NCBI GenBank assembly: GCA_965199995.1
Contig: OZ241328.1
Location: forward strand, 1,143,724-1,207,723
DNA from: Dehalococcoidia bacterium
Lineage (GTDB): Bacteria; Chloroflexota; Dehalococcoidia; Lucifugimonadales; UBA3495
Direction: 5' to 3'
Length of the DNA: 64,000 nucleotides
Part shown: positions 7,366 to 37,205 of the stretch, piece after piece
How the letters are laid out: every line of letters begins with the position of its first letter
How positions within the stretch are numbered: the first letter of the stretch is position 1
Program-made: the position numbers and the translations under genes
The notes under the pieces: generated by a model
Seen by the model: the letters and a program-made list of their open reading frames with translations, nothing else
Told to the model about the DNA's origin: nothing
Database searches by the model: none

Positions 7366-7767
7366 TTAGCTCATCCGCTCCTTGACGAACTGAAGGACGA
7401 GATCCGACAGGAAGATGGAGCGGTCGGCGTCAACCTCATCAAAAGCATCGAAAGAGGCTCCGCTGGGCAGGAACTCCGGGTAGCGGGTGATGTAGTGATA
7501 TTTGTCCAATTGCCGGGCTTCGCTCTTCACGGTGTCGAACATCATGTCGAAGAGTTTGGCGTCTTCACACAGGTCTAACAGCGAGTGCCCCCAGACGTCT
7601 TCCACCCGCTTGTGGTACAGATATGCCTTGATAGCCTTCTCGGCGGCCTGCTGTCCCTGGAAGCAGGCTAGATTGTGTCTTCCGTTGTCGCGCAGAAAGC
7701 GAGCGTCTTCGATGTCTCTCTCAGCCTGACGCAGCCAGCGAGCGCCTTCCGACAGGTAATCAGGCAT
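7366..7767 (-). CDS. HEPN domain protein
   Basis: [10 protein letters not shown]...HSL...TRYP pattern of MNT-associated HEPN proteins. Confidence 0.88.
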
Positions 7768-8101
7768 TAAAAATCTCCCTTCCTTCAGCGCAGGCCCGCC
7801 GTAGCGCCGGCAGGGTATCCTTCAGCGCCTCGAACTCCTCCGAGGTGTATACCTGGGTGTCAATTTCCACCGAACTGCCTAAGTGGTAAGAAAAGAAGTC
7901 AGACCGTCTCCCGAAGGGCTGGTCGGTATTATGCACCACGATAAGCTTAATCTGGCTCTCTGGGGTATATTCACCGGCTGCGACTTCACCGGTCAGGATT
8001 ACCTTTTCCAACCCCAGGTTGGGGAGGATTTCCTGGATGTTTTCTAGTTCCCGCTCCACCATCTGTTTGCGGAATTGGGCAAAGCCCACGCGCATCGGCA
8101 T
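7760..8101 (-). CDS. Minimal nucleotidyltransferase (MNT)-fold protein with a degenerate catalytic motif
   Basis: [11 protein letters not shown]...SQIKLIVV...[11 protein letters not shown]...EGREI follows the MNT layout; overlaps the HEPN start. Confidence 0.75.
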
Positions 8102-10447: not shown

Positions 10448-11185
10448 CTATTGATGGTCTAAAACTTGGGCTAGGTGGCGAATTTCTATGTCTGGCGCTT
10501 CGCGTCTCAGCGCGCCGCCGATGTGCATCAGGCAGCTCATATCACAGGAAACCAGCGTATCCGCGCCGGAGTCTCGCACGGCGGATACCTTGTCTTTAAG
10601 CATTCCTTCGGATATGTGGGGCATTTTAACCGAGAAACTGCCTCCGAATCCGCAACAGGTTTCGGCATTGCGCATTTCTTTCAGGTCCAGCCCAGGCATC
10701 GCCCGCAACAGGGACTGCGGTGCGTTCCGCACCTCCATTTCGCGCAACAAGTGGCACCCGGGATGGAAAACCGCCGAGCCTGCCCCTTCGACTCCAGGTT
10801 CTTCTACGCCCAGCACATCGGCTAGGAATTCGGAGAACTCGTATATCCGGCGGGACAGAGATTCAGCCCGGGCGAGCAGCACCGGGTCATCCTCAAACAA
10901 ATCCAGGTAGAAAACTCGGATCATTGCCGAGCAGGAACCCGACGGCACCACAACATAGTCGCTGTTCTGAAACTCGTCCAGCGTCCTTACCGCCATCTCC
11001 CGCGCTTGGCGGGTGTAGCCGGAGTTGTAGACTGCCTGACCGCAGCAGGTCTGCCCTTCGGGAAATCCGACGGCTACTCCCAGCCGCCGCAATACGCGCA
11101 CCACGCTGACGCCAACGTCGGGAAAGAGCTGGTCAATGATGCAGGTTACGAACAGGTCTGCTTTAACTGATGCAGGACTAGTCAA
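10448..11185 (-). CDS. lutA: Lactate utilization protein A (LutA/YkgE, CCG domains)
   Basis: LFVTCIID, QTCCGQ, SGSC, CCGFGGSF, DMSCLMHI; TTG start chosen, start position uncertain. Confidence 0.92.
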   Translation of the reverse strand: MTSPASVKADLFVTCIIDQLFPDVGVSVVRVLRRLGVAVGFPEGQTCCGQAVYNSGYTRQAREMAVRTLDEFQNSDYVVVPSGSCSAMIRVFYLDLFEDDPVLLARAESLSRRIYEFSEFLADVLGVEEPGVEGAGSAVFHPGCHLLREMEVRNAPQSLLRAMPGLDLKEMRNAETCCGFGGSFSVKMPHISEGMLKDKVSAVRDSGADTLVSCDMSCLMHIGGALRREAPDIEIRHLAQVLDHQ

Positions 11186-11262
11186 GCCGCCACCGCCTTT
11201 CGCAAAAAGCCTAACAGACTGCAACGGCGCTGGCAATGATTAGAGGGCATATTCTATGTTCG

Positions 11263-11292
11263 TTGACAGGGCAAAAGATCTGTAACTACACT
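11263..11292 (+). promoter_or_regulatory. Putative sigma70 promoter of thiO
   Basis: TTGACA-N18-TACACT upstream of a GGAGG RBS. Confidence 0.5.
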
Positions 11293-11321
11293 CGCCCTTA
11301 TTTGCGCCGGAGGAGCAAGCT

Positions 11322-12443
11322 ATGCCGGATTCGGTGGACATTGCCGTGGTTGGCGGGGGAGTTATGGGTTGCGCCATTGCCTGGCAGTTGGCGAAAAGGG
11401 GCGTTTCCTGCGCATTAGTGGAGCGGGGTTCTTTCGGAGGCGGGGCCTCGGGGGCGACGGCCGGCGTAGTTGGCCCTCTGTGGCATATAGACCCGGCCGA
11501 CGATGATCTGTTCCGGCTGGGGATGCGCAGCCTGGAACTGTTTCCCCTTTGGGCGGCAGAACTGGCCGAGGCTGGCGTAAACCCAGAGTTCCAGCAGACC
11601 GGGGTGCTGAAGATAGCCTTCTCGGAAGACGAGGTTGAGGAACTGCGGGGCTTCTACCGTTGGCAATCCCAGCTCGGCCTAGCAGGAGAGTGGCTGACGG
11701 GAGATGACATAGCCCGGCGCGAACCCGAGATTAACCCCGAGGCCCACGCCGCCATACTTTCGCCCGCCGAGGGCTGCGTAAGGGGCCAGCGGCTATGCGA
11801 TTCTCTGGCGCACGCGGCGGGGCAGTCGGGGGCGAAACTGTATGAGAACGTCGAAGTTACCGGGTTGCGCTATGACAACCGCCGGATAACCGGCATCGAA
11901 ACCACCATCGGCAGCATCGCTGCCGGACAGGTAGTGCTGGCGGCCGGGCCTGGGAGCGGCATCAGCGGACGCTGGAGCTATTCCGGCGGCCCGCTGGACC
12001 TTCCCGTTCGCGGCGTCAAGGGGCAGCGCATTCTATTGCGCAGGCCCGGTTTCCTGCCCCGTTCGCCGGTGCGAAACTCCGCCGTCTACGTTGTCCCCCG
12101 ACGGGACGGCAACATACTGGTGGCATCGACCAGGGAAGAGGGGCGCTCCGATGAAAGGGTAACCGCGGAAGGCATAGCAGCCTTGGTATCCGGGGCAGTG
12201 CAGTCGTTCCCGGCGCTGGCCGAGGCAGCCTTTGTATCGGGGCGAGCCGGGGTTCGGCCGGCTACTCCCGACGGACGCCCCGTCATTGGCCCCGCGCCCG
12301 GCGGGGAAGGGCTGACCATCGCCACAGGCCACGATGCCGTGGGAATTATGCTCAGTCCGGGAACCGCCGAGCTGGTGGTTCAGTTCCTGCTGGACGGTAA
12401 TGATGCGCCGCTTCGGTCTTTCAGCGCCGGCCGGTTCGCTTAG
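11322..12443 (+). CDS. thiO: Glycine oxidase ThiO-like FAD-dependent oxidoreductase
   Basis: VVGGGVMG, GASGATAG, VKGQ, GVRPATPDGRPVIG, ATGH..GIML. Confidence 0.8.
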   Translation: MPDSVDIAVVGGGVMGCAIAWQLAKRGVSCALVERGSFGGGASGATAGVVGPLWHIDPADDDLFRLGMRSLELFPLWAAELAEAGVNPEFQQTGVLKIAFSEDEVEELRGFYRWQSQLGLAGEWLTGDDIARREPEINPEAHAAILSPAEGCVRGQRLCDSLAHAAGQSGAKLYENVEVTGLRYDNRRITGIETTIGSIAAGQVVLAAGPGSGISGRWSYSGGPLDLPVRGVKGQRILLRRPGFLPRSPVRNSAVYVVPRRDGNILVASTREEGRSDERVTAEGIAALVSGAVQSFPALAEAAFVSGRAGVRPATPDGRPVIGPAPGGEGLTIATGHDAVGIMLSPGTAELVVQFLLDGNDAPLRSFSAGRFA

Positions 12444-12455
12444 CCCGACGGCGCC
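12440..12455 (+). repeat. Left copy of a 16-bp direct repeat flanking the R-M gene
   Basis: TTAGCCCGACGGCGCC; 15/16 identical to 15853-15868. Confidence 0.8.
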
Positions 12456-12761
12456 GGATAGTCCGCCATCTCGTCCACCACCTCCATCGTCCGCACGCTT
12501 ACCGTGCAGACGCGCTGTAACAGGTCGATTACCCGCTCCTTGTAGTCCGCGAAGCGGTAGGTGTTGAACTTTTCGGCGATGGTGGGGTCACGAGGCTTGC
12601 GCTCTTTGTACTGGTCCAGCACCCACTCCAACGCCGAGCGGCTACCGAGGCGGTAGCGCCAAGCCGCCTCCGGCACGCCGGCCAGCGTGGTCTCGCTGTC
12701 CAGCAGGATACGCCCCTCAGCTTTGTCGGCCCGCAACACTACCTTCGGCCCAATCCCTGTC

Positions 12762-13126
12762 GCCACCCCGCCATTCCCGCGCGCCACCCCGTCATTCCCG
12801 CCCGCGCCATCGTCATTCCCGCGAAAGCGGGAATCCCCCCGTCCCTGCCCGCCGGCCACCCCGTCATTCCCGTCGGCCACCCCGTCATTCCCGCGAAAGC
12901 GGGAATCCCCCCTCGTCATTCCCGCCCGCGCCATCGTCATTCCCGCGAAAGCGGGAATCCCCCCGTCCCCGTCCCTGTCCGTCATTCCCCGCGGGAATCC
13001 CACCCGTCCCCGTCATTCCCGCCCGCGCCATCGTCATTCCCGCGAAAGCGGGAATCCCCCCGTCCCTGCCCGCCCGCCGGCCATTCCCGCCCGCGCCATC
13101 GTCATTCCCGCGAAAGCGGGAATCCC
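12762..13126 (+). repeat. Array of REP/dRS3-like palindromes (CGTCATTCCCGCGAAAGCGGGAATCC) and half-sites inside the R-M gene
   Basis: Five full copies (about 12811, 12883, 12935, 13032, 13100), one shortened copy (about 12980) and interspersed (GT)CATTCCCG half-sites. Confidence 0.95.
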
Positions 13127-15852
13127 TTCGTGCCAGCGGATACGGCGCCGCCGCCTCGAACCCGATATGCAGCTCCAGCAGCTCGCGCCCCATCCTGGCC
13201 CAAGCCGCAAAGTCAGCGTAAAAGGGCAGGCGCGGAAACTCCCGCTGCAGGTCAACGGCGTACTCCTCGCGGTAGGCCGGGTTGTGGAGCACGGCGTAGG
13301 TGTAGGCGAATATATCCTCGGCAGTGATGCCGTCATCGCCATAATGCTCCCGAAACTGCCGCAGCCCCCACTCCGTGATGTTGCTGACCCGCTCCCCGTC
13401 CTCCGTGTAGCGGTAGAGAGGCAGGCATTGGGTCTTTTCGAGAGTGAAAATCAAAGCCCGGCAGCTTGCCGGTAGCCAATACCTGAAATGGCTTGGCCGA
13501 AGCAACTCCGGAGAAGCAGATTACTTTGTTGGGCTGGCGTAAATCAGCCCCAAACATTTCGTAGTGATTTCTGGTAAGCCTGTGATTCAACGCTATATCT
13601 GCAAAATGGTGCTTAACAACAAACGGACGATATAATGATTCATACGGCTTGCCTCACTATAAATAATGCTACATCTGCGCTGAAATCTATTACTTAGTGA
13701 ACTACTCCATTTAATAACCGGATCATTAGGTTCGTGATTGCTGTCTAGTAGTTCGTTGTATATGTCAGCAAAGAACAAGACTTTATCGCGAAGGTCGGCT
13801 ATATTAAAGTCATATACCCATTCATCGCGGCTAGTAACTACTCCAATAGAGTACAGCCAAACACCGCCTCCTCACCATCAGCAGACTTGGCCAGCTTCGT
13901 TTGACGGTTAGCCAGGGGTATCAGACTGGCGAAATCGCTGTTGGACTGGTTCAGCCATTGCCCGTCGGAATTGGCAGTAATTTCCTCGAAAGGCAATCTC
14001 ATCCAGCATGGTCTTCCGTAAATAAGTCAACTTATCGCTGGCTACTTTAGCATAATCTTCACGCCGGGTAATGAATGCCACATTGGCCTAACCCCTGCCT
14101 TTTTCTCTGACAAAAAATCCTATGGCAACGCCGGTCTGGATGCCAAAAACGTTGTGCTTCGTGCCGGATATTTTGGGGTTGCGGCGAACATCAGAACCCA
14201 GGTCAAGCACATACAAGTCATTGAACTCTTTGGCTGTTTGCGGAAACCGTCATCCTGCCGGGAGTCCAGATAAGCTCGATTGGTTACGAAAGCGATAATT
14301 CCGTCATCCGTCAGCCGGTCGGATGCCCAGCGGATGAACCGCTTGTACATATCGTACTGTTTATGTCTTTTGAGCCGTGCTTGCTCTGGTGTAGGTTTCA
14401 CGGATGCGCTGGTCTATTTCAGGATATTCGCGGTTTGGGATTGAAGTCGTTCCAATATCGTTGCTGTAGCATTATACGGCGGGTTGCCGATGATGACGCT
14501 GATGGTCTTTTCGTTTTGCTCCTGCACCCGGAGCCAGTTTTCTTCCGACAGCCCGCCCAAGTTGAACGCCGCCTGCCGGGTCACTGCGCCGCCGGTTGCG
14601 CCTTGCCAGTCCATGTTGTCCAGCGTGTCCACAAAGCAGAGATTGGGGAACTCCAGGTAGCGGCCCGTCCGCTCCCGGTAGCTGTATTCAATGTTCAGAT
14701 TGGCGATATAGTAAGGCAGGATAGCGACTTCGTTGGCATGAATTTCGTTCAGGTACTTGTACTCCAGCCGCTCGGCGGGCAGGTAGTCAATCAGGCTGGT
14801 GACAAAAGTGCCGGTGCCGGTAGCCGGATCGAGAATCTGCACATTGTCGTCGGCCAGGCTCTTGCCGAAGTGCTTTTGCAGCAGGTAATCCGCCCCGCGA
14901 ATGATGAAGTCCACCACCTCGTTGGGAGTATAGACCACGCCGAGGCGGTCGGCGGCGGCGGGGTTGTAAGCCTTGTAAAAGTCTTCGTAAATGGCCTTGA
15001 GGAACTGCTGCTTTTCCGAGTAGTCGGCGATTTCGTCGGCGGCGCGGCCAATGGCGCCGTAGTAGGCGCGGAGGCGGTCGATGGCCTGGCGGCGCACGTC
15101 GCCGGTGAAGAAGGTCTGCTCCAGGGCGGCGAGCTGGCGGGCGACGTTGTTCTCGCGGTGGAACTGGTCTTCGGCGAAAACCCGCAGGAAGATGTCTTGC
15201 GTCAGGATGTGCTGCAACAGCATCTCGCGCACATCGGCGGGGGAGACGGCGGGGCTGATGGTCTGGCGGCAGAGTTCAAGGAAGCGGGTGGCCCCGGCCT
15301 GGTAGGCGGCGTTGCCGTCCTCGGCGTCGGCCACCGCCTGGCGCAGGTTCTCCAGCACGGCGGGCAGGTCGGTCCGGAACTGCTGGCGGGCCTGGCGGAA
15401 CTCCTCGATTTCCGGCAGTTCGTAGTCCAGGAAGCGGGTAATCAGCCGATGCAGCTCGCCGGGGCGGGACATATCCACGCGCATCGCTTCCTGCCGGTTC
15501 TGGAACAGGACGGCGGAGAGGGAGTTCTCGAAGACGATGTTATCGCGGGGGTAGCCGCGGTTGAACTTGGCCTGAATCTCAGCGTCCAGGTCGTCGTGGA
15601 TGTCCTTTGCCTCCCAATAGCCTCGGGTCATGCGCAGGGAGTCTTTCACCGTGCCGTCGGGCCGGTTGCGCAAGGGGGCGTCCAGCTCGTCCACCAAGGC
15701 CAGCCTTTCGTGGTGCTGGCGGCAGTAGGAATCGAGACAGACGGCAAAGGCGCGGCGGATGCTCTGCTCGTTGTCGGAGCCGCCGAAGTCAATCAGCCGC
15801 TGCTTGTCCGCGTAGTAACGCTCAATATGAGGATAAGAGGGCATGACTCGGG

Positions 15853-15868
15853 TTAGCCCGACAGCGCC
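15853..15868 (+). repeat. Right copy of the 16-bp direct repeat; forms the 3' end of the TPP-enzyme gene
   Basis: TTAGCCCGACAGCGCC. Confidence 0.8.
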
Positions 15869-17529
15869 ACGTCCACGATGGCGATGCGGCCGGCGTCAAC
15901 GGCAGCCTGGGCTTCTCTCAGGGCTTCCGGCAGCCGGGCCGGGTCTTCCACCCGCTCGCCGTGTCCCCCGAAGGGGCGGGCCAGTTCGGAGTAATCCGGG
16001 CCCGGAATGTTCACGCCATAGAAATCGCCCGTTTGGGAAGACGTTCCTTCCGGGTAGAAAGAGAGATGCAGGCTCTTCATCGCGGCGTAGCTGGCGTTGT
16101 TGAACACTACTATGAGGATGGGCAGATTGCTCTCCCGGGCCACGCCGAGGCTTTGGGTGATGGGGTTGTAGAGGAAGGAGCCATCCCCAATCAGCGCCGT
16201 CACGGGGCGGTCGGGAGCCGCCAGCTTGGCGCCCAGGGCAATTCCCAGTCCCTGACCCAGGCCGCCGGCCGGGCGCATATACGACAGCGGATTGTCCCCA
16301 GCGATGCGCCGCAATATCTGGGCGCGATGCAGAATCGTCTCATCCACAAAGATCGTATTGGAGGGCAACACATCGCTCAAGGTATTGCAAAGGAAGCCGG
16401 GGTCTATGGGCGAGGCGGCGGGCCCGGAGGCGTCGAGAGCGCGGTAGCGTTCCCACACCGGATTGGGGCCGGACGGCATCGCCGGGGCCGGGCCGTCGGC
16501 CTGCTCCCGCACCGCCGCGTCCAGGGCGGCCAGGGTTACGGGCAGGGAACCCTCCAGGTAGAAGTCGGCCTGCAAGTCTTGATGCACCATATATTCTTTG
16601 ACGGGGTATTCGTCTATGCAGACCACGGTGGCCGACGGGCCGGCGCTGGGCGGATACCACGGGGCGCGGTTGCCAATAACCAGAAACAGGTCGAACCTGT
16701 CCATCTCCCGGCGCAGATCATAGCCGTGGTGGAGCGGATGGCTTTTAGGGAAATTGTTGTAGGCCGGGCCTTCTCCTTCAAAGACCGGAATGGCCCGAGA
16801 CTCGGCGAGGGATACTAGGGCGTTGAAACCGGCGGCAGTGCGCCCGGCGGAGTCGGCGACAATGACGGGATTGGCGGCGCGACGGACAAGCTCGGCCACC
16901 TGAGCCACGGCGCGGGGGTCGGGATGGCTGGCCGGCGCCGAAGGACGGCGCTTCAGCCGTTCGGGCGGCGTCCACTCTTCCAGCATGGTCTCGATGGGAA
17001 CGTTTAGGAAAGCGGGGCCTTTGGGAGTGCGCTGGGCCAGCTCTCCGGCGCGAGCCACCGTTTCATAGAGGGTCTGGGGGCTGGTGACTCGGCTGCTCCA
17101 CTTGGTGAAAGGCTCCACCAGGCGATTGGGCCCGCCAACGATGCTCAGGTTGCGGAGCCATTGCGGGCCGGGGTCAAACTCCGGCGCTTCGCCGTAAGTG
17201 GCCGACTCTCCGGAGCATACCAGCATCGGCACTTCGCTCTGATACGCGCCGTGAATGCCCATAGACCCCTGCAGCACCCCCACGCCGGCGTGCAGCAACA
17301 CCGCCTGCATCCGGCCGGTCATGCGCGTGTAACCCGAGGCCATGGCCACGGCGAGGGTTTCGTGCCAGCAGTTGATGTATGTCGGCCCTGGGCGTTCTTC
17401 CAGTTTCTGCCGGGCTAGGGCCTCCCATACAGAAGGCCACTCGGAGCCGGGGGAAGAAATAATATAGTCAACGTCCAGGTTCCGCAGGGCTTCCAGAATC
17501 GCGTCCCCGCCGTCTAGCCGCTCGTTCAT
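15853..17529 (-). CDS. Thiamine pyrophosphate-dependent enzyme (acetolactate synthase/benzoylformate decarboxylase-like)
   Basis: HETLAVAMASGY, GGLGQGLG, GDGSFLYN...NN TPP motif; start at MNERLDGG. Confidence 0.9.
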   Translation of the reverse strand: MNERLDGGDAILEALRNLDVDYIISSPGSEWPSVWEALARQKLEERPGPTYINCWHETLAVAMASGYTRMTGRMQAVLLHAGVGVLQGSMGIHGAYQSEVPMLVCSGESATYGEAPEFDPGPQWLRNLSIVGGPNRLVEPFTKWSSRVTSPQTLYETVARAGELAQRTPKGPAFLNVPIETMLEEWTPPERLKRRPSAPASHPDPRAVAQVAELVRRAANPVIVADSAGRTAAGFNALVSLAESRAIPVFEGEGPAYNNFPKSHPLHHGYDLRREMDRFDLFLVIGNRAPWYPPSAGPSATVVCIDEYPVKEYMVHQDLQADFYLEGSLPVTLAALDAAVREQADGPAPAMPSGPNPVWERYRALDASGPAASPIDPGFLCNTLSDVLPSNTIFVDETILHRAQILRRIAGDNPLSYMRPAGGLGQGLGIALGAKLAAPDRPVTALIGDGSFLYNPITQSLGVARESNLPILIVVFNNASYAAMKSLHLSFYPEGTSSQTGDFYGVNIPGPDYSELARPFGGHGERVEDPARLPEALREAQAAVDAGRIAIVDVALSG

Positions 17530-17540
17530 AGCGCTTGCTC

Positions 17541-17741
17541 CTAGCTTCTTACCCAGCGGCATTCAGGCTGATGGCCGTGGGAGCCTTGATCAATACAGGT
17601 GCAGGGAATATCTTCCCGCAGGCAATAACCGTTATATTCCAGATAGGCGCAGAACCCGGGGTAGAAGCCCTCGCCTTCGTCAATGGAGTCGAATCCGGCT
17701 TGGAAAGCTTCGCGAAGTTCTTCGCGGGTCGGTCGAATCAT
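17541..17741 (-). CDS. Small Cys/His-rich hypothetical protein
   Basis: Tightly packed in the operon; CTC...HGH...C. Confidence 0.6.
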   Translation of the reverse strand: MIRPTREELREAFQAGFDSIDEGEGFYPGFCAYLEYNGYCLREDIPCTCIDQGSHGHQPECRWVRS

Positions 17742-17749
17742 AGTTTCGC

Positions 17750-17956
17750 CTACTCCCCGGCCAGCACTTCTGCGATGTCTTGAGCGAAGACCATATCCTC
17801 AGTTCCCACGAGGTCAGGGTCTTCCGGCGAGGTGATGTATTTGACAAACACCCATACCCCGTCCTTGGGATTGCTTATCACCTGAGCGGTTGCGCCGGTG
17901 ATGGTGGAAATTGTGGCCCCTTCTTCGATGCTGATGAGGTTTACAATATCGGCCAT
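17750..17956 (-). CDS. Small acidic beta-rich hypothetical protein following the dioxygenase beta subunit
   Basis: GGAG RBS; operonic position; 68 aa. Confidence 0.7.
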   Translation of the reverse strand: MADIVNLISIEEGATISTITGATAQVISNPKDGVWVFVKYITSPEDPDLVGTEDMVFAQDIAEVLAGE

Positions 17957-17969
17957 TCGTCCGTCTCCC

Positions 17970-18515
17970 TTAGAAAAAGAAGGTCAGGTTCTTGGCCAGC
18001 AGGACGTTCTGGTCGAGAATTACCTTTCGCTGGGCTATTTTCCAGCCGCCATTCTCCTGGCGCAGGACATCTTCCCGCTTTCCGATGAGGAAGTCCGTCT
18101 CGGTTTCCACCCGATTGCGATAGATGAGGAAGCGGCACTTGAGGGCGACTTCCGTCGCTGCATCCGCCGACGGCAGTGCTTCCAGAAGCTGGACATTGGA
18201 GACCATGTGGCAGATGCGGGACAGCGGTTCCTCGGCCCAGTGGACGCCGGTAAGAATCTGGTTCACTCGCTGTTCAAGGGTGGATTTGCCTTCGTCGAAC
18301 CAGTTGATGTCGTATCCCTCGCGGGTGAACTCCCGGTCTAGCTCGCCGAATTTCACGTTGCGGCGCATGGGCATCCAGTAGCGGATGTCATCGGAGAGGA
18401 GGCCTAGCCATTCGGCAAAGCGGCGTTCGTCCAGCAATTCCGCTTCGTGAAACAGGAACTCTTCCACTTCGTTCTTCAGCAGCATTTGGGCAAGGCCGGC
18501 CCCGGCGGTGGTCAT
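17970..18515 (-). CDS. Aromatic ring-hydroxylating dioxygenase beta subunit (HcaF/BphA2-like)
   Basis: FLFHEAELLD..RF.EWL, IRYWMP, WAEEPLSR, GKREDVLR, NLTFFF; start at MTTAG. Confidence 0.93.
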   Translation of the reverse strand: MTTAGAGLAQMLLKNEVEEFLFHEAELLDERRFAEWLGLLSDDIRYWMPMRRNVKFGELDREFTREGYDINWFDEGKSTLEQRVNQILTGVHWAEEPLSRICHMVSNVQLLEALPSADAATEVALKCRFLIYRNRVETETDFLIGKREDVLRQENGGWKIAQRKVILDQNVLLAKNLTFFF

Positions 18516-28162: not shown

Positions 28163-28455
28163 CCCGTCATTCCCGCTCTCCCCCGTCATTCATTCCCGCT
28201 CTCCCCCGTCATTCCCGCTCTCCCCCGTCATTCCCGCTCTCCCCCGTCATTCCCGCATTCCCGCCCTCCCCCGTCATTCCCGCCCTCCCCGTCATTCCCG
28301 CCCTCCCCCGTCATTCCCCCGTCATTCCCGCCCTCCCCCGTCATTCCCGCCCTCCCCGTCATTCCCGCCCTCCCCCGTCATTCCCGCCCCCCCGTCATTC
28401 CCGCCCTCCCCCGTCATTCCCACCCTCCCCGTCATTCCCGCGGACGCGGGAATCC
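28163..28455 (+). repeat. Tandem array of about 15 half-site units CCCGTCATTCCCGCYCTCC ending in one full palindrome
   Basis: Period mostly 17-19 bp; terminal CGTCATTCCCGCGGACGCGGGAATCC at 28430-28455. Confidence 0.95.
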
Positions 28456-35663: not shown

Positions 35664-35948
35664 TGCCTGTACTCCTTATCGGCCCGAATTCCATAAAGTT
35701 TCAAGCCTATTGTAATGCTATTCCTACATCTCTGAAAATCAGTCAAGCTAATACCATGCCTCCTGCTATGAGCCACAGCCTAGAGGGCTCCTCTTAGTTC
35801 AGTAGCACTCAGTGGTCAATGATAAAGTCAAATTCGGACTCTGGGAGTGCAAATAGCCATAATTGTAGCGCAAAATCACACGTTTTGATGTTGATATATG
35901 CGCTCTGAGAAAATACAATAGCGCTATCCTATCCCATTGGAGGCTGAA

Positions 35949-37205
35949 ATGGACGCCAAGACCAAGATTATCAGGGTTCCCGGAACTTCCGACGACGCTC
36001 GATCCCGTGCCTCTGGCATAGCAGCCGATGCGAACCGCGAGGTTGTACCATTCCGTGTTTTTGAACAAGGAGACAGGACGATGCTATCCGGGGCGATTCC
36101 TGTCCGAGTGCTGGTTCGGGTACTCCAGTACAACGCCACAGACAAAGGAGTAGCTGCCCGACGAGCCTTGAACACCCGCAACCGTCCCGTGGCTAACGAC
36201 CATGTGAACGCGATTGCGGCATACCTATGGAGGGCTGTCCAAAGGGGAGAAAACTACATCATCCCGTCGCTTACCCTCAACTCCACCCGCACGGTAGAGG
36301 TTTTTGTGCCAGAGGGGGATTACACGCCGTTGACGGGATACGCCGTATTCCCCGATGAAGCCTCCATTCACATTACCGATGGGCAGCATCGCTATCTCGC
36401 AATCTGCCAAGTTGTCAACGAACTGCGCGGTACCCCTGCTGGGGAAAAATTCATGAGGGACAGCATTCCCGTGATGATGACCATCGAAAGTGGCTTGGAG
36501 CAGGTACACCAGGATTTCGCTGACGCAGGCAAGACTAAGCCGCTCCCCCCGTCGCTTCTGGCAGTTTACGACACCCGCCAGCCCGCCAATGCTGCCGTAA
36601 TGGCTATAGGGGAGCGAGTAAAACTCCTGAATGGCCGGATCGATGCGACTTCTTCCACTTTGAGCGTCAATTCGCCGTTTGTGTTTCTAGTCAATCAAGT
36701 GCGCCAGTTCGTCAAGTCTAGCTTGACCGGCAGCCCGACAGTCTCGGAAGCTTCCTTTGCCAGCCAAGCGGAAGCGGCAATGGCTAATCCCGAAGCGCGC
36801 GAGCGGTGGATCAAGTCGAGAGTGGCCTTCCTTAGCGTTATGACAGAAATCATTGACGACTGGAAGGAAATATCCGAGTTAGCCCCGCCCGGCGGCCCGG
36901 AAGGAGCGGAAGTGTTGTCGCGCACCAAGGCAATACGGTCGCAAAAGCGCGTCACGATGGCGGCGGCTTTTTTGAACACTCTAGGGGTAGTTTCCCACAA
37001 CGTACTTAAGGATGCTACCAATGACACGGTAGACCAAGCCAAACTCGAGGATACCCTTAGGGTCAAGCTGGAACCGTTTCGAAAAATCAATTGGGATAGG
37101 GATGATGATATGTGGGCCGGCAACTTGGTCGTTGACGGTAAGGTCAGGACACAAACGCCGGCGTTGAAAGCTGCTTCTGACAAGATGATGGCGTTGCTGA
37201 ACTAA
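35949..37205 (+). CDS. DGQHR-domain (DndB-like) protein
   Basis: NRPV...H...I..Y, ITDGQHRY, QDFAD; GGAGG RBS. Confidence 0.85.
   Translation: MDAKTKIIRVPGTSDDARSRASGIAADANREVVPFRVFEQGDRTMLSGAIPVRVLVRVLQYNATDKGVAARRALNTRNRPVANDHVNAIAAYLWRAVQRGENYIIPSLTLNSTRTVEVFVPEGDYTPLTGYAVFPDEASIHITDGQHRYLAICQVVNELRGTPAGEKFMRDSIPVMMTIESGLEQVHQDFADAGKTKPLPPSLLAVYDTRQPANAAVMAIGERVKLLNGRIDATSSTLSVNSPFVFLVNQVRQFVKSSLTGSPTVSEASFASQAEAAMANPEARERWIKSRVAFLSVMTEIIDDWKEISELAPPGGPEGAEVLSRTKAIRSQKRVTMAAAFLNTLGVVSHNVLKDATNDTVDQAKLEDTLRVKLEPFRKINWDRDDDMWAGNLVVDGKVRTQTPALKAASDKMMALLN

Follow-up and report, generated by a model that had tools for sequence, protein, structure and literature searches.

A 64,000-nt stretch of the genome of a sponge-associated Dehalococcoidia bacterium (contig OZ241328.1 of assembly GCA_965199995.1, positions 1,143,724 to 1,207,723; called the window below) contains a restriction-modification (R-M) unit of Type IIG between thiO, a glycine oxidase gene, and a convergent gene for a thiamine pyrophosphate (TPP) enzyme. 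The unit is bracketed by a 16-nt direct repeat of the end of the TPP-enzyme gene. We think it fairly probable that a 3′-truncated Type IIG gene entered this site in a single illegitimate insertion that duplicated 16 nt of the target, and that the gene decayed afterwards. A fragment of ~3.4 kb, reaching from ~8 nt before the R-M ATG to just short of the 3′ end of the gene, would have inserted once, in the lineage of this genome (G000), at the 4-nt overlap of the convergent thiO and TPP stops. The 16 nt of target that would have been duplicated are the last TPP codons and the stop; one copy would keep the TPP gene whole, while the other, in frame, would close the truncated R-M gene and retain the overlap with the thiO stop. 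No recombinase encoded by the element would have been involved, and the gene, which would have come without a promoter, would be readable only by read-through from the TPP gene. Later, one base would have changed in one copy of the repeat, a dispersed palindromic repeat would have invaded the gene, and the frame, as assembled, would have been broken many times. On this reading the insertion belongs, with a shorter repeat than usual, to an R-M mobility class that is already in the literature, and requires no new mechanism.

The genome is a single contig of 3,073,352 bp with 60% G+C, and the window lies at 1144-1208 kb. The thiO gene (positions 11322..12443, plus strand; TIGR02352, 284.2 bits against a cut-off of 250.8; Pfam DAO, 7.9e-77) ends with a TAG stop at 12441-12443, which is overlapped by the TAA of the R-M frame, as TTAG. 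The TPP-enzyme gene (15853..17562, minus strand) is intact, encodes 569 aa and matches Pfam TPP_enzyme_N, _M and _C; its protein scores 385.7 bits against NF006203, under the cut-off of 456. The right copy of the repeat, TTAGCCCGACAGCGCC (15853..15868), is the native 3′ end and stop of this gene, ..VALSG*. The left copy, TTAGCCCGACGGCGCC (12440..12455; repeat family D18, 94%), closes the last reading frame of R-M with ..YPAPSG*. The two copies are identical at 15 of 16 nt, and the variable position of the right copy is the same A, in a Leu codon, in the TPP ends of relatives. On both strands of the whole genome, no further site comes within one mismatch of either 16-mer. The flank of the R-M start (126 nt) and that of its stop (180 nt) gave a local match of 13, compared with a maximum of 11 in 100 shuffles, and junction against junction gave 13.5, compared with a maximum of 10.0 in 200 shuffles. 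Since the pair stands above all shuffles and makes up both of the sites found genome-wide, it is not due to chance. The repeats enclose a 3.4-kb unit, one R-M gene in length, with 3409 nt between thiO and TPP. No Rfam family matched in 11000-18000. An initial annotation of this DNA had described the two 16-mers, their relation to the two gene ends and the 8 nt between the TPP stop and the R-M ATG, and all of this was confirmed. Its statement that the repeats bracket exactly one gene holds for a unit of gene length; the unit is, however, not a continuous open reading frame (ORF), as described below.

In order to find the state of the site without the insertion, the junction was compared among relatives. 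TPP orthologues of 77-91% identity were present in 23 of 24 congeners of a first draw, and at E <=1e-60 an orthologue was found in 38 of 40 genus genomes, G000 included; G024 and G053 had none at the threshold used. The thiO/TPP junction was resolved in 30 relatives and in G000. Left out were the junctions of G009, in which thiO is not within 1.5 kb of TPP, and of G047, G010, G005, G016, G042 and G019. The stops overlap by 4 nt in six of the 30 relatives (G011, G014, G021, G041, G052 and G044) and more deeply in one (G007). A spacer of 6 or 26 nt separates the genes in two others (G002, G023) and one of 87-142 nt in ten genomes, and 11 genomes carry an insert of 395-1226 nt. An R-M gene at this junction was found in none of the 30 relatives, only in G000. 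The empty junction of G011 reads ..CGCTTCGGCTAACCCGACAGCGCCACGTCC.., which equals the window minus the insert and one repeat, and the single repeat copy there reads ..GGCTAACCCGACAGCGCC..; the corresponding empty-site joint of the window locus would connect ..GGTTCGC with TTAGCCCGACAGCGCCACG. Removal of the insert with one repeat had been predicted to restore a clean convergent thiO/TPP junction, and this junction, with its 4-nt stop overlap, is what the six relatives have. On a maximum-likelihood tree of TPP, G000 forms a clade (SH-aLRT 99) with G014, G041 and G044, all with overlapping stops, and G049, which bears a GNAT gene at the junction; the sister group consists of G011 (overlapping), G054 and G043. 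From this placement and the overlapping stops of its kin, the insertion is, among the genomes compared, specific to the G000 lineage.

The R-M unit is open only at 14414-15844 (minus strand), where it encodes 476 aa. This intact N-terminal ORF matches the PADLOC profile PDLC03621 (REase_MTase_IIG) with 473 bits over residues 8-460, and the intact homologue in G011 matches the same profile with 1028 bits over positions 9-1012 of 1024. The ORF contains the N6-methyltransferase motifs DPATGTGTF and IGNPPYNA, of which DPATGTG and NPPY are presumably methyltransferase motifs I and IV, and it matches Pfam ISP_coupler and N6_Mtase. Pfam Type_ISP_C was matched in four downstream pieces, and Eco57I was also among the family matches. 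A stretch in the N-terminal part, ..RPDGTVKDSLRMTRGYWEAKD.., resembles what we take to be a PD..(E)xK nuclease motif; no nuclease Pfam family matched in this region, which is covered by the PADLOC profile alone. By these profile matches, the gene belongs to the Type IIG restriction-modification family. Like Type IIG enzymes (PADLOC REase_MTase_IIG; Pfam Eco57I, MmeI_Mtase, Type_ISP_C), which are single chains of ~1020-1250 aa, it would combine a putative nuclease region at the N terminus with a helical coupler, a methyltransferase of the gamma class acting on N6-adenine and a specificity domain at the C terminus, and it shares with them a variable, low-GC specificity part. Unlike these enzymes, the window copy is broken and bears a repeat array. 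What sets the gene apart from true Type ISP enzymes is its lack of helicase and Mrr parts.

Homologues of the N-terminal part were matched in 36 of 40 genus genomes (E <=1e-10). Outside G000, 34 matches covered nearly all of the N-terminal part, at 69-91% identity; a single genome often has several, their contexts are varied, and the similarity always ends near residue 460, which is the start of the variable part. Twenty homologues were fetched with their flanks; 13 are 1014-1078 aa long and 7 are cut short. Using the last 105 residues as the query, we obtained 6638 relatives at E <=1e-20 from a large protein collection.

The homology of the window copy to other R-M genes ends at ..ATGGCGGACTAT, and the 16-mer follows. 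At the DNA level the window copy shares ..ATGGCGGA(CTAT) with the tails of homologues and then enters the 16-mer. After the conserved ..VSVxTMxVVDxM, the tails of 29 genus homologues vary widely: in ~10 of the 29, AYW[DE]G.. leads to an additional domain at the C terminus, and the others are short-tailed. Anchorable tails numbered 119 among the best 120 of the 6638 database relatives. Of these tails, 69 continue AYWD or AYWE, and others read MAGYHSEK*, MADLQVSQRAAP* or MADARR*; PAPS or a terminal SG occurs in none. The 16-mer, at <=2 mismatches, was absent from 68 R-M loci (374 kb), and a degenerate scan of a collection of genome contigs for ..VVDEMADY gave nine matches, all in unrelated genes. 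The initial annotation had named homologues natively ending in this sequence as the finding that would speak against an insertion, and none was seen in these loci and tails. Since the 16-mer is absent from R-M loci and tails and the homology ends where it begins, the left copy would come from the target. We conclude from these comparisons that the last 16 nt of the R-M frame probably derive from the target and not from the gene, and that the gene would have lost its own 3′ end, a few codons if it was of the short-tailed kind and ~42 if it was of the AYW kind. The 16-mer is read in the same frame in TPP and in R-M, so the duplicated TPP stop closes the R-M gene; the use of a host stop codon had been proposed before and is upheld. 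Many homologues (L041:6000-6500; equivalents in L044, L049-L051 and L057) carry a C-terminal extension, AYW[DE]G..GDRD..WSET, followed immediately by an ORF starting ..FPFTDLSGGKTRPAVVL.., which, as we read it, resembles a PemK/MazF-type toxin. The extended R-M tail may act as an antitoxin to this ORF.

The spacer between the TPP stop and the R-M ATG (15845..15852, minus strand) reads CCCGAGTC. Its CCCGAG is also found in the spacer preceding the R-M homologue of G014. As a weak indication, this suggests that the insert probably begins inside the 8-nt spacer, which would have arrived with it. A scan for the sigma-70 consensus from TPP to the R-M ATG detected neither a promoter nor a terminator. 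Fourteen of 20 homologues have a TANNNT box, mostly after TG or GT, 10-17 nt upstream of the ATG, which suggests leaderless or near-leaderless transcripts of R-M homologues in this genus. No such box precedes the R-M ATG of the window, nor is there one in the six copies that closely follow another gene. It is thus reasonable to infer that the R-M gene is promoterless, as the initial annotation had it, and would be read through from TPP.

With regard to the source of the gene, the two most similar R-M copies, those of G011 and G014, both lie between a gene ending ..VFGW* and a glutamine-synthetase-like gene. The G011 homologue is 90.7% identical in protein to the N-terminal part over 461 aa. 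In DNA, the identity to G011 is 86.1% for the R-M N-terminal part, 82.7% for TPP and 74.4% for thiO. The R-M gene has thus diverged about as far as TPP and thiO have, which speaks against its recent arrival from one of the species sampled; it may have moved within the lineage. The equivalent locus of G000 (G000:C1:686640-688714, L122) holds a different R-M-like set of low GC (48.6%), consisting of four same-frame ORFs split by TGA, TAG and TAA, one of them with methyltransferase-like motifs. At the locus equivalent to L122, G011, G014 and G047 have a Type IIG gene and a small downstream gene. From its sequence, L122 looks like an allelic replacement by another, decayed R-M set.

The apparent decay of the window copy is seen when it is aligned with the intact G011 homologue, to which it is related in eight collinear pieces with at least seven frame changes. 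The C-terminal conserved piece (12443..12745, minus strand) comprises the end of Type_ISP_C (PF18135 profile positions 270-342) and the tail ..VVDEMADY, and is 82% identical to residues 915-1008 of the G011 homologue. It adjoins an array of five units of a dispersed palindromic repeat (12746..13127, ~380 nt; core ATTCCCGCGAAAGCGGGAAT; repeat families D1 and D2). On the Type_ISP_C profile the array falls between positions 255 and 270, in a C-terminal-domain loop, and it shifts the reading frame. The repeat has an 8-bp stem and a GAAA loop (hairpin of -9 kcal/mol, z -3.45). Genome-wide the repeat occurs 65 times without mismatch and 169 times at <=2 mismatches, grouped in 120 clusters; the longest arrays have 7 units. 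The palindromic repeat is also found at window position 28434. The middle of the R-M gene (13128..14413, minus strand), in which the methyltransferase is completed and the specificity domain begins, consists of pieces in different frames with a GC of 41-51%. All eight intact homologues profiled show the same GC dip, and a chimeric or mosaic origin of the low-GC middle was ruled out on that ground. Taken as assembled, the breaks would presumably have cost the gene its function.

We also compared the locus with contigs from four public runs (X1, X2, X4 and X6; sponge or unlabelled metagenomes) of two studies. The left junction is crossed by X1 record 1 (11900-12756), in a contig of 15,314 nt, and the right junction by X1 record 8 (15098-16400), in a contig of 3,146 nt, both with 0 differences. 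Contigs of X2, X4 and X6, which belong to the second study, bridge both junctions with 0-2 differences (X2 with 1 difference per contig). Since contigs of two studies cross both junctions, the insertion is not an assembly artefact. Exact-pattern scans of metagenome contigs gave 0 matches for the right junction and 0 for the R-M 5′ end. In the flanks of the gene the contigs agree exactly with the assembly. Against ~13560-14470, the short-read contigs listed are all short, have a lower and split depth, and differ from the assembly, for instance by 10 letters and 12 gaps in 386 nt. This mismatch fits either a badly assembled polymorphic specificity region or a minor decayed variant, and the specificity region may be polymorphic in the population. 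Among all fetched loci the nearest DNA relative of the broken middle is <=76% identical, so that sequencing errors are not separable from real frameshifts there.

The thiO/TPP junction is occupied in 22 of 31 genomes, and its contents are of at least five kinds. Homologous GNAT genes of 200 aa (Pfam Acetyltransf_1) are present in G006 (L012), G049 (L062), G045 (L075) and G051 (L081), which fall in three separate parts of the TPP tree; the GNAT gene always has the orientation of TPP and starts 16-18 nt past the TPP stop. A membrane-like ORF occupies the junction in G008 and G043, and in G054 there is a small ribbon-helix-helix-like ORF (fold judged by eye, no Pfam match) together with a second ORF. 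In G006 the GNAT gene lies between 27-nt repeats (24/27 identical) that span the ends of thiO and TPP. The G006 repeat scored 19.5, compared with a control maximum of 10.5, and both relics exceeded the controls in a separate relic test. Among the four GNAT genomes a clear junction duplication is kept in G006 only. A thiO-end relic adjoins TPP in G050 (11.5, compared with a control maximum of 10.0). Judging from these repeats, at least two independent insertions, those in G000 and G006, duplicated the target, over different extents. The pattern fits a non-specific process combined with selection better than a fixed att core, since any insertion into overlapping stops must rebuild a gene end.

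The initial annotation had considered the gene a bare cassette integrated at an operon end and had asked whether homologues elsewhere also end in duplications of the 3′ end of the upstream gene. A lineage-specific insertion of a single gene was indeed found. The gene is, however, 3′-truncated, broken as assembled and not repeatedly mobilised: at none of the 20 fetched homologues did flanking repeats exceed the shuffles of the locus itself (6-9, compared with maxima of 9-12; for the 7 truncated copies the comparison was not anchored at the true end of the gene). The reported lack of a recombinase or transposase in the window was borne out, in that none of the 53 ORFs >=100 aa matched an integrase or transposase Pfam family at E <=1e-5; about a dozen of these ORFs have no family at all. 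The genome has two Phage_integrase matches (tyrosine recombinases), at 603 kb and 1804 kb, far from the window. No inverted repeat was present at the insert ends among 25 of the 29 pairs found. Two further routes were dismissed. End joining by Ku was set aside because no Ku was found in the genome, and a retro-copy (cDNA of a leaderless mRNA) was rejected because the genome has no RVT_1 and the insert ends inside the ORF and not at a terminator.

Other histories of the locus have to be weighed against a single illegitimate insertion. The left copy of the repeat might be mostly native R-M sequence, with only its last bases being duplicated target, if the native R-M end, ..CCGGCGCCGTCGG.., resembled the TPP 3′ end and guided the integration by microhomology, either through a template switch to the chromosome or through a single crossover of a circular fragment. 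The lone mismatch between the copies would then be an original difference in sequence, and the lack of Ku makes classical end joining unlikely. One of the 29 genus homologues, L119 (from G014), ends ..DPAPSA*, and L112 ends ..MPPSAL*. The L119 match exists at the protein level only, with 10 of 18 bases identical as counted by eye. Moreover, with P, A, S and G as abundant as they are in these tails, a match of four residues among ~150 of them is unsurprising, and the database tails described above offer no support. In G006, the duplication spans the ends of both host genes and the cargo cannot be its source. We regard guidance by microhomology as unlikely, although it deserves consideration. 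A different possibility is that the junction is an att site with the 16-mer as its core, into which a host recombinase, e.g. a tyrosine recombinase, inserts promoterless single-gene circles in trans. The high occupancy of the junction by varied contents would agree with this, as would the duplicated junction sequence in two to four genomes (clear in G000 and G006, weak in G050, borderline in G054) and the fact that the R-M and GNAT cargos are single genes in TPP orientation that start 8-18 nt past the TPP stop. However, the extents of duplication differ, being 16 nt on the TPP side in G000 and at least 27 nt spanning both genes in G006; no motif is common to the cargo ends, which also lack an inverted repeat; none of the 20 other R-M copies has such repeats; and the GNAT gene at the same site in distant species is equally well explained by homologous recombination in the flanking genes. 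Among 15 of the 17 contig joints, none connects 12440-12455 with 15853-15868 and none joins the ends of the insert, i.e. neither an empty-site joint nor a circle was seen, in contigs that drop rare forms. Capture of this kind is quite improbable. We likewise give little credence to the idea that the stop overlap is a true attachment site at which a host enzyme acting in trans exchanges single-gene units and rebuilds both gene ends; if true, this would be a recombinase-less cassette system outside integrons.

The R-M gene could also be ancestral at this site, with relatives having lost it when the 16-nt repeats recombined. Such a deletion would restore the overlapping-stop junction exactly, the divergence of the R-M gene from G011 is of core-gene order, and a possible relic in G054 (see below) would find a place. 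The gene is nevertheless at this site in none of the 30 relatives, and genomes with overlapping stops are scattered over several distinct clades on the TPP tree, which would call for many independent precise deletions; the repeats themselves would still require an insertion event. This history is highly improbable. A metagenome misassembly that joined the R-M gene to the locus could account for the middle of the gene not being reproduced exactly by short-read contigs, with their lower and split depth, and yet the junctions are crossed almost without difference in two studies, by the X1 contigs and by the corresponding ones of X2, X4 and X6. We attach next to no weight to a chimera. Several points nevertheless weigh against the single illegitimate insertion that we favour. 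The 16-nt repeat is shorter than the 30-nt screen of the published class, and we know of no enzyme for such a target duplication; Ku, as stated, is missing from the genome. No donor copy was found among the fetched loci, the nearest being that of G011. The ..DPAPSA* of L119 resembles ..YPAPSG*, which makes a native microhomology tail conceivable, and an in-frame fusion by luck happens one time in three. The frameshifts may in part be assembly errors. Contigs of the RNA runs (X4 and X6) cross from TPP into R-M and from R-M into thiO, which does not itself show a transcript and is a weak hint of read-through transcription. Finally, in G054 the sequence TTAGCCCGACGGC adjoins thiO and is identical at 13 of 13 positions to the left copy, including the variant G; its score equals the control maximum, a different insert of 911 nt follows (L070), and the TPP end of that genome reads CTAGGCCGAAAGC. 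It may be a relic of a shared, exchanged or older junction, which the simple model leaves unexplained.

The insertion was compared with known systems. As described by Furuta, Abe and Kobayashi in 2010, R-M insertion with long target duplication involves R-M genes alone, with direct repeats that align to one copy at the empty site of a relative; the class covers Types I to IV, including Type IIG, at operon-like targets, with repeats that span the stop site and leave the target gene intact. Fusion at the junction can create new genes, and the screen required repeats >30 bp (PMC2853133). The window insert agrees with the class in its size of 3.4 kb (<20 kb), in having R and M functions in one Type IIG gene, in lacking mobility genes and in having repeats that align to the single copy at the empty site of six congeners. 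It differs in that the repeat is 16 nt long, below the >30-bp rule, in that the duplicated stop closes the inserted truncated gene, and in that the same junction took cargo other than R-M genes in relatives. Insertion of this type was reportedly described by Nobusato et al. in 2000.

The same genome contains a further case (G000:C1:969908-973191, L121:1409-4692), a set of an SfiI-like endonuclease, an N6_N4 methylase and an IS1595 transposase fragment. The set lies between ~431-nt direct repeats, 402 nt of which are identical in one run, and the repeated segment spans the beginning of an amidohydrolase gene. Of 11 fetched loci, 3 hold both of the genes that flank the set, an aminotransferase and the amidohydrolase; these are the loci of G041, G014 and G049, and in each the two genes are neighbours. 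By its repeats and empty sites, L121 is a textbook R-M insertion with long target duplication. Tandem paralogues made up most of what a search of the whole genome for local direct repeats brought up, and the 431-nt case alone was taken up from it.

Integron cassettes are promoterless single ORFs that lie downstream of host transcription and contain no recombinase. The window insert is alike in being a single, apparently promoterless gene unit without a recombinase. It is unlike them in that its cargo end bears no imperfect palindrome of the attC kind and in that no IntI-type platform lies nearby, the window having no recombinase family; the other copies of the gene are not cassettes either. 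Islands that integrate at gene 3′ ends (att sites of the tRNA/tmRNA type) also leave a duplicate that restores the target (PMC2853133). A direct repeat of a gene 3′ end likewise flanks the window insert and leaves the target whole, but no integrase lies inside the insert or next to it, the cargo consists of a single gene of 3.4 kb, and the target is a stop overlap of protein genes. Insertion sequences (IS) typically duplicate <10 bp of target (PMC2853133). The 16-nt duplication is longer than this, and neither the terminal inverted repeats nor the transposase of an IS or transposon were found at the insert or in the window. The junction as a whole can also be set beside transfer hotspots between core genes, where one intergenic position holds different accessory genes across species. 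The junction resembles them in its occupancy and in the recurrence of the GNAT gene and the membrane-like ORF in separate clades. It differs in being resolved more finely, in that its empty state is a 4-nt stop overlap, so that an insertion must duplicate or rebuild a gene end.

Two other features of the window were observed. At 7369-8101, an ORF with a HEPN domain (133 aa) lies directly after an ORF of 113 aa without a family, and from their arrangement the two may form a pair of the HEPN/nucleotidyltransferase type. At 35937-37202 there is an ORF of the DndB family (associated with DNA sulfur modification, 5.6e-51), with no obvious Dnd partners among the scanned neighbours.

The thiO/TPP locus provides a base-resolved example of a defence gene entering a core-genome position without the machinery of a mobile element, with the empty site, the two junctions and the point where imported homology stops all defined. 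In it, the stop that closes a truncated incoming gene is a duplicate of a host stop, and the locus extends R-M mobility with target duplication to a sponge-associated lineage and to a shorter repeat. It also indicates that a junction of overlapping stops can serve as a recurrent entry point for accessory genes.

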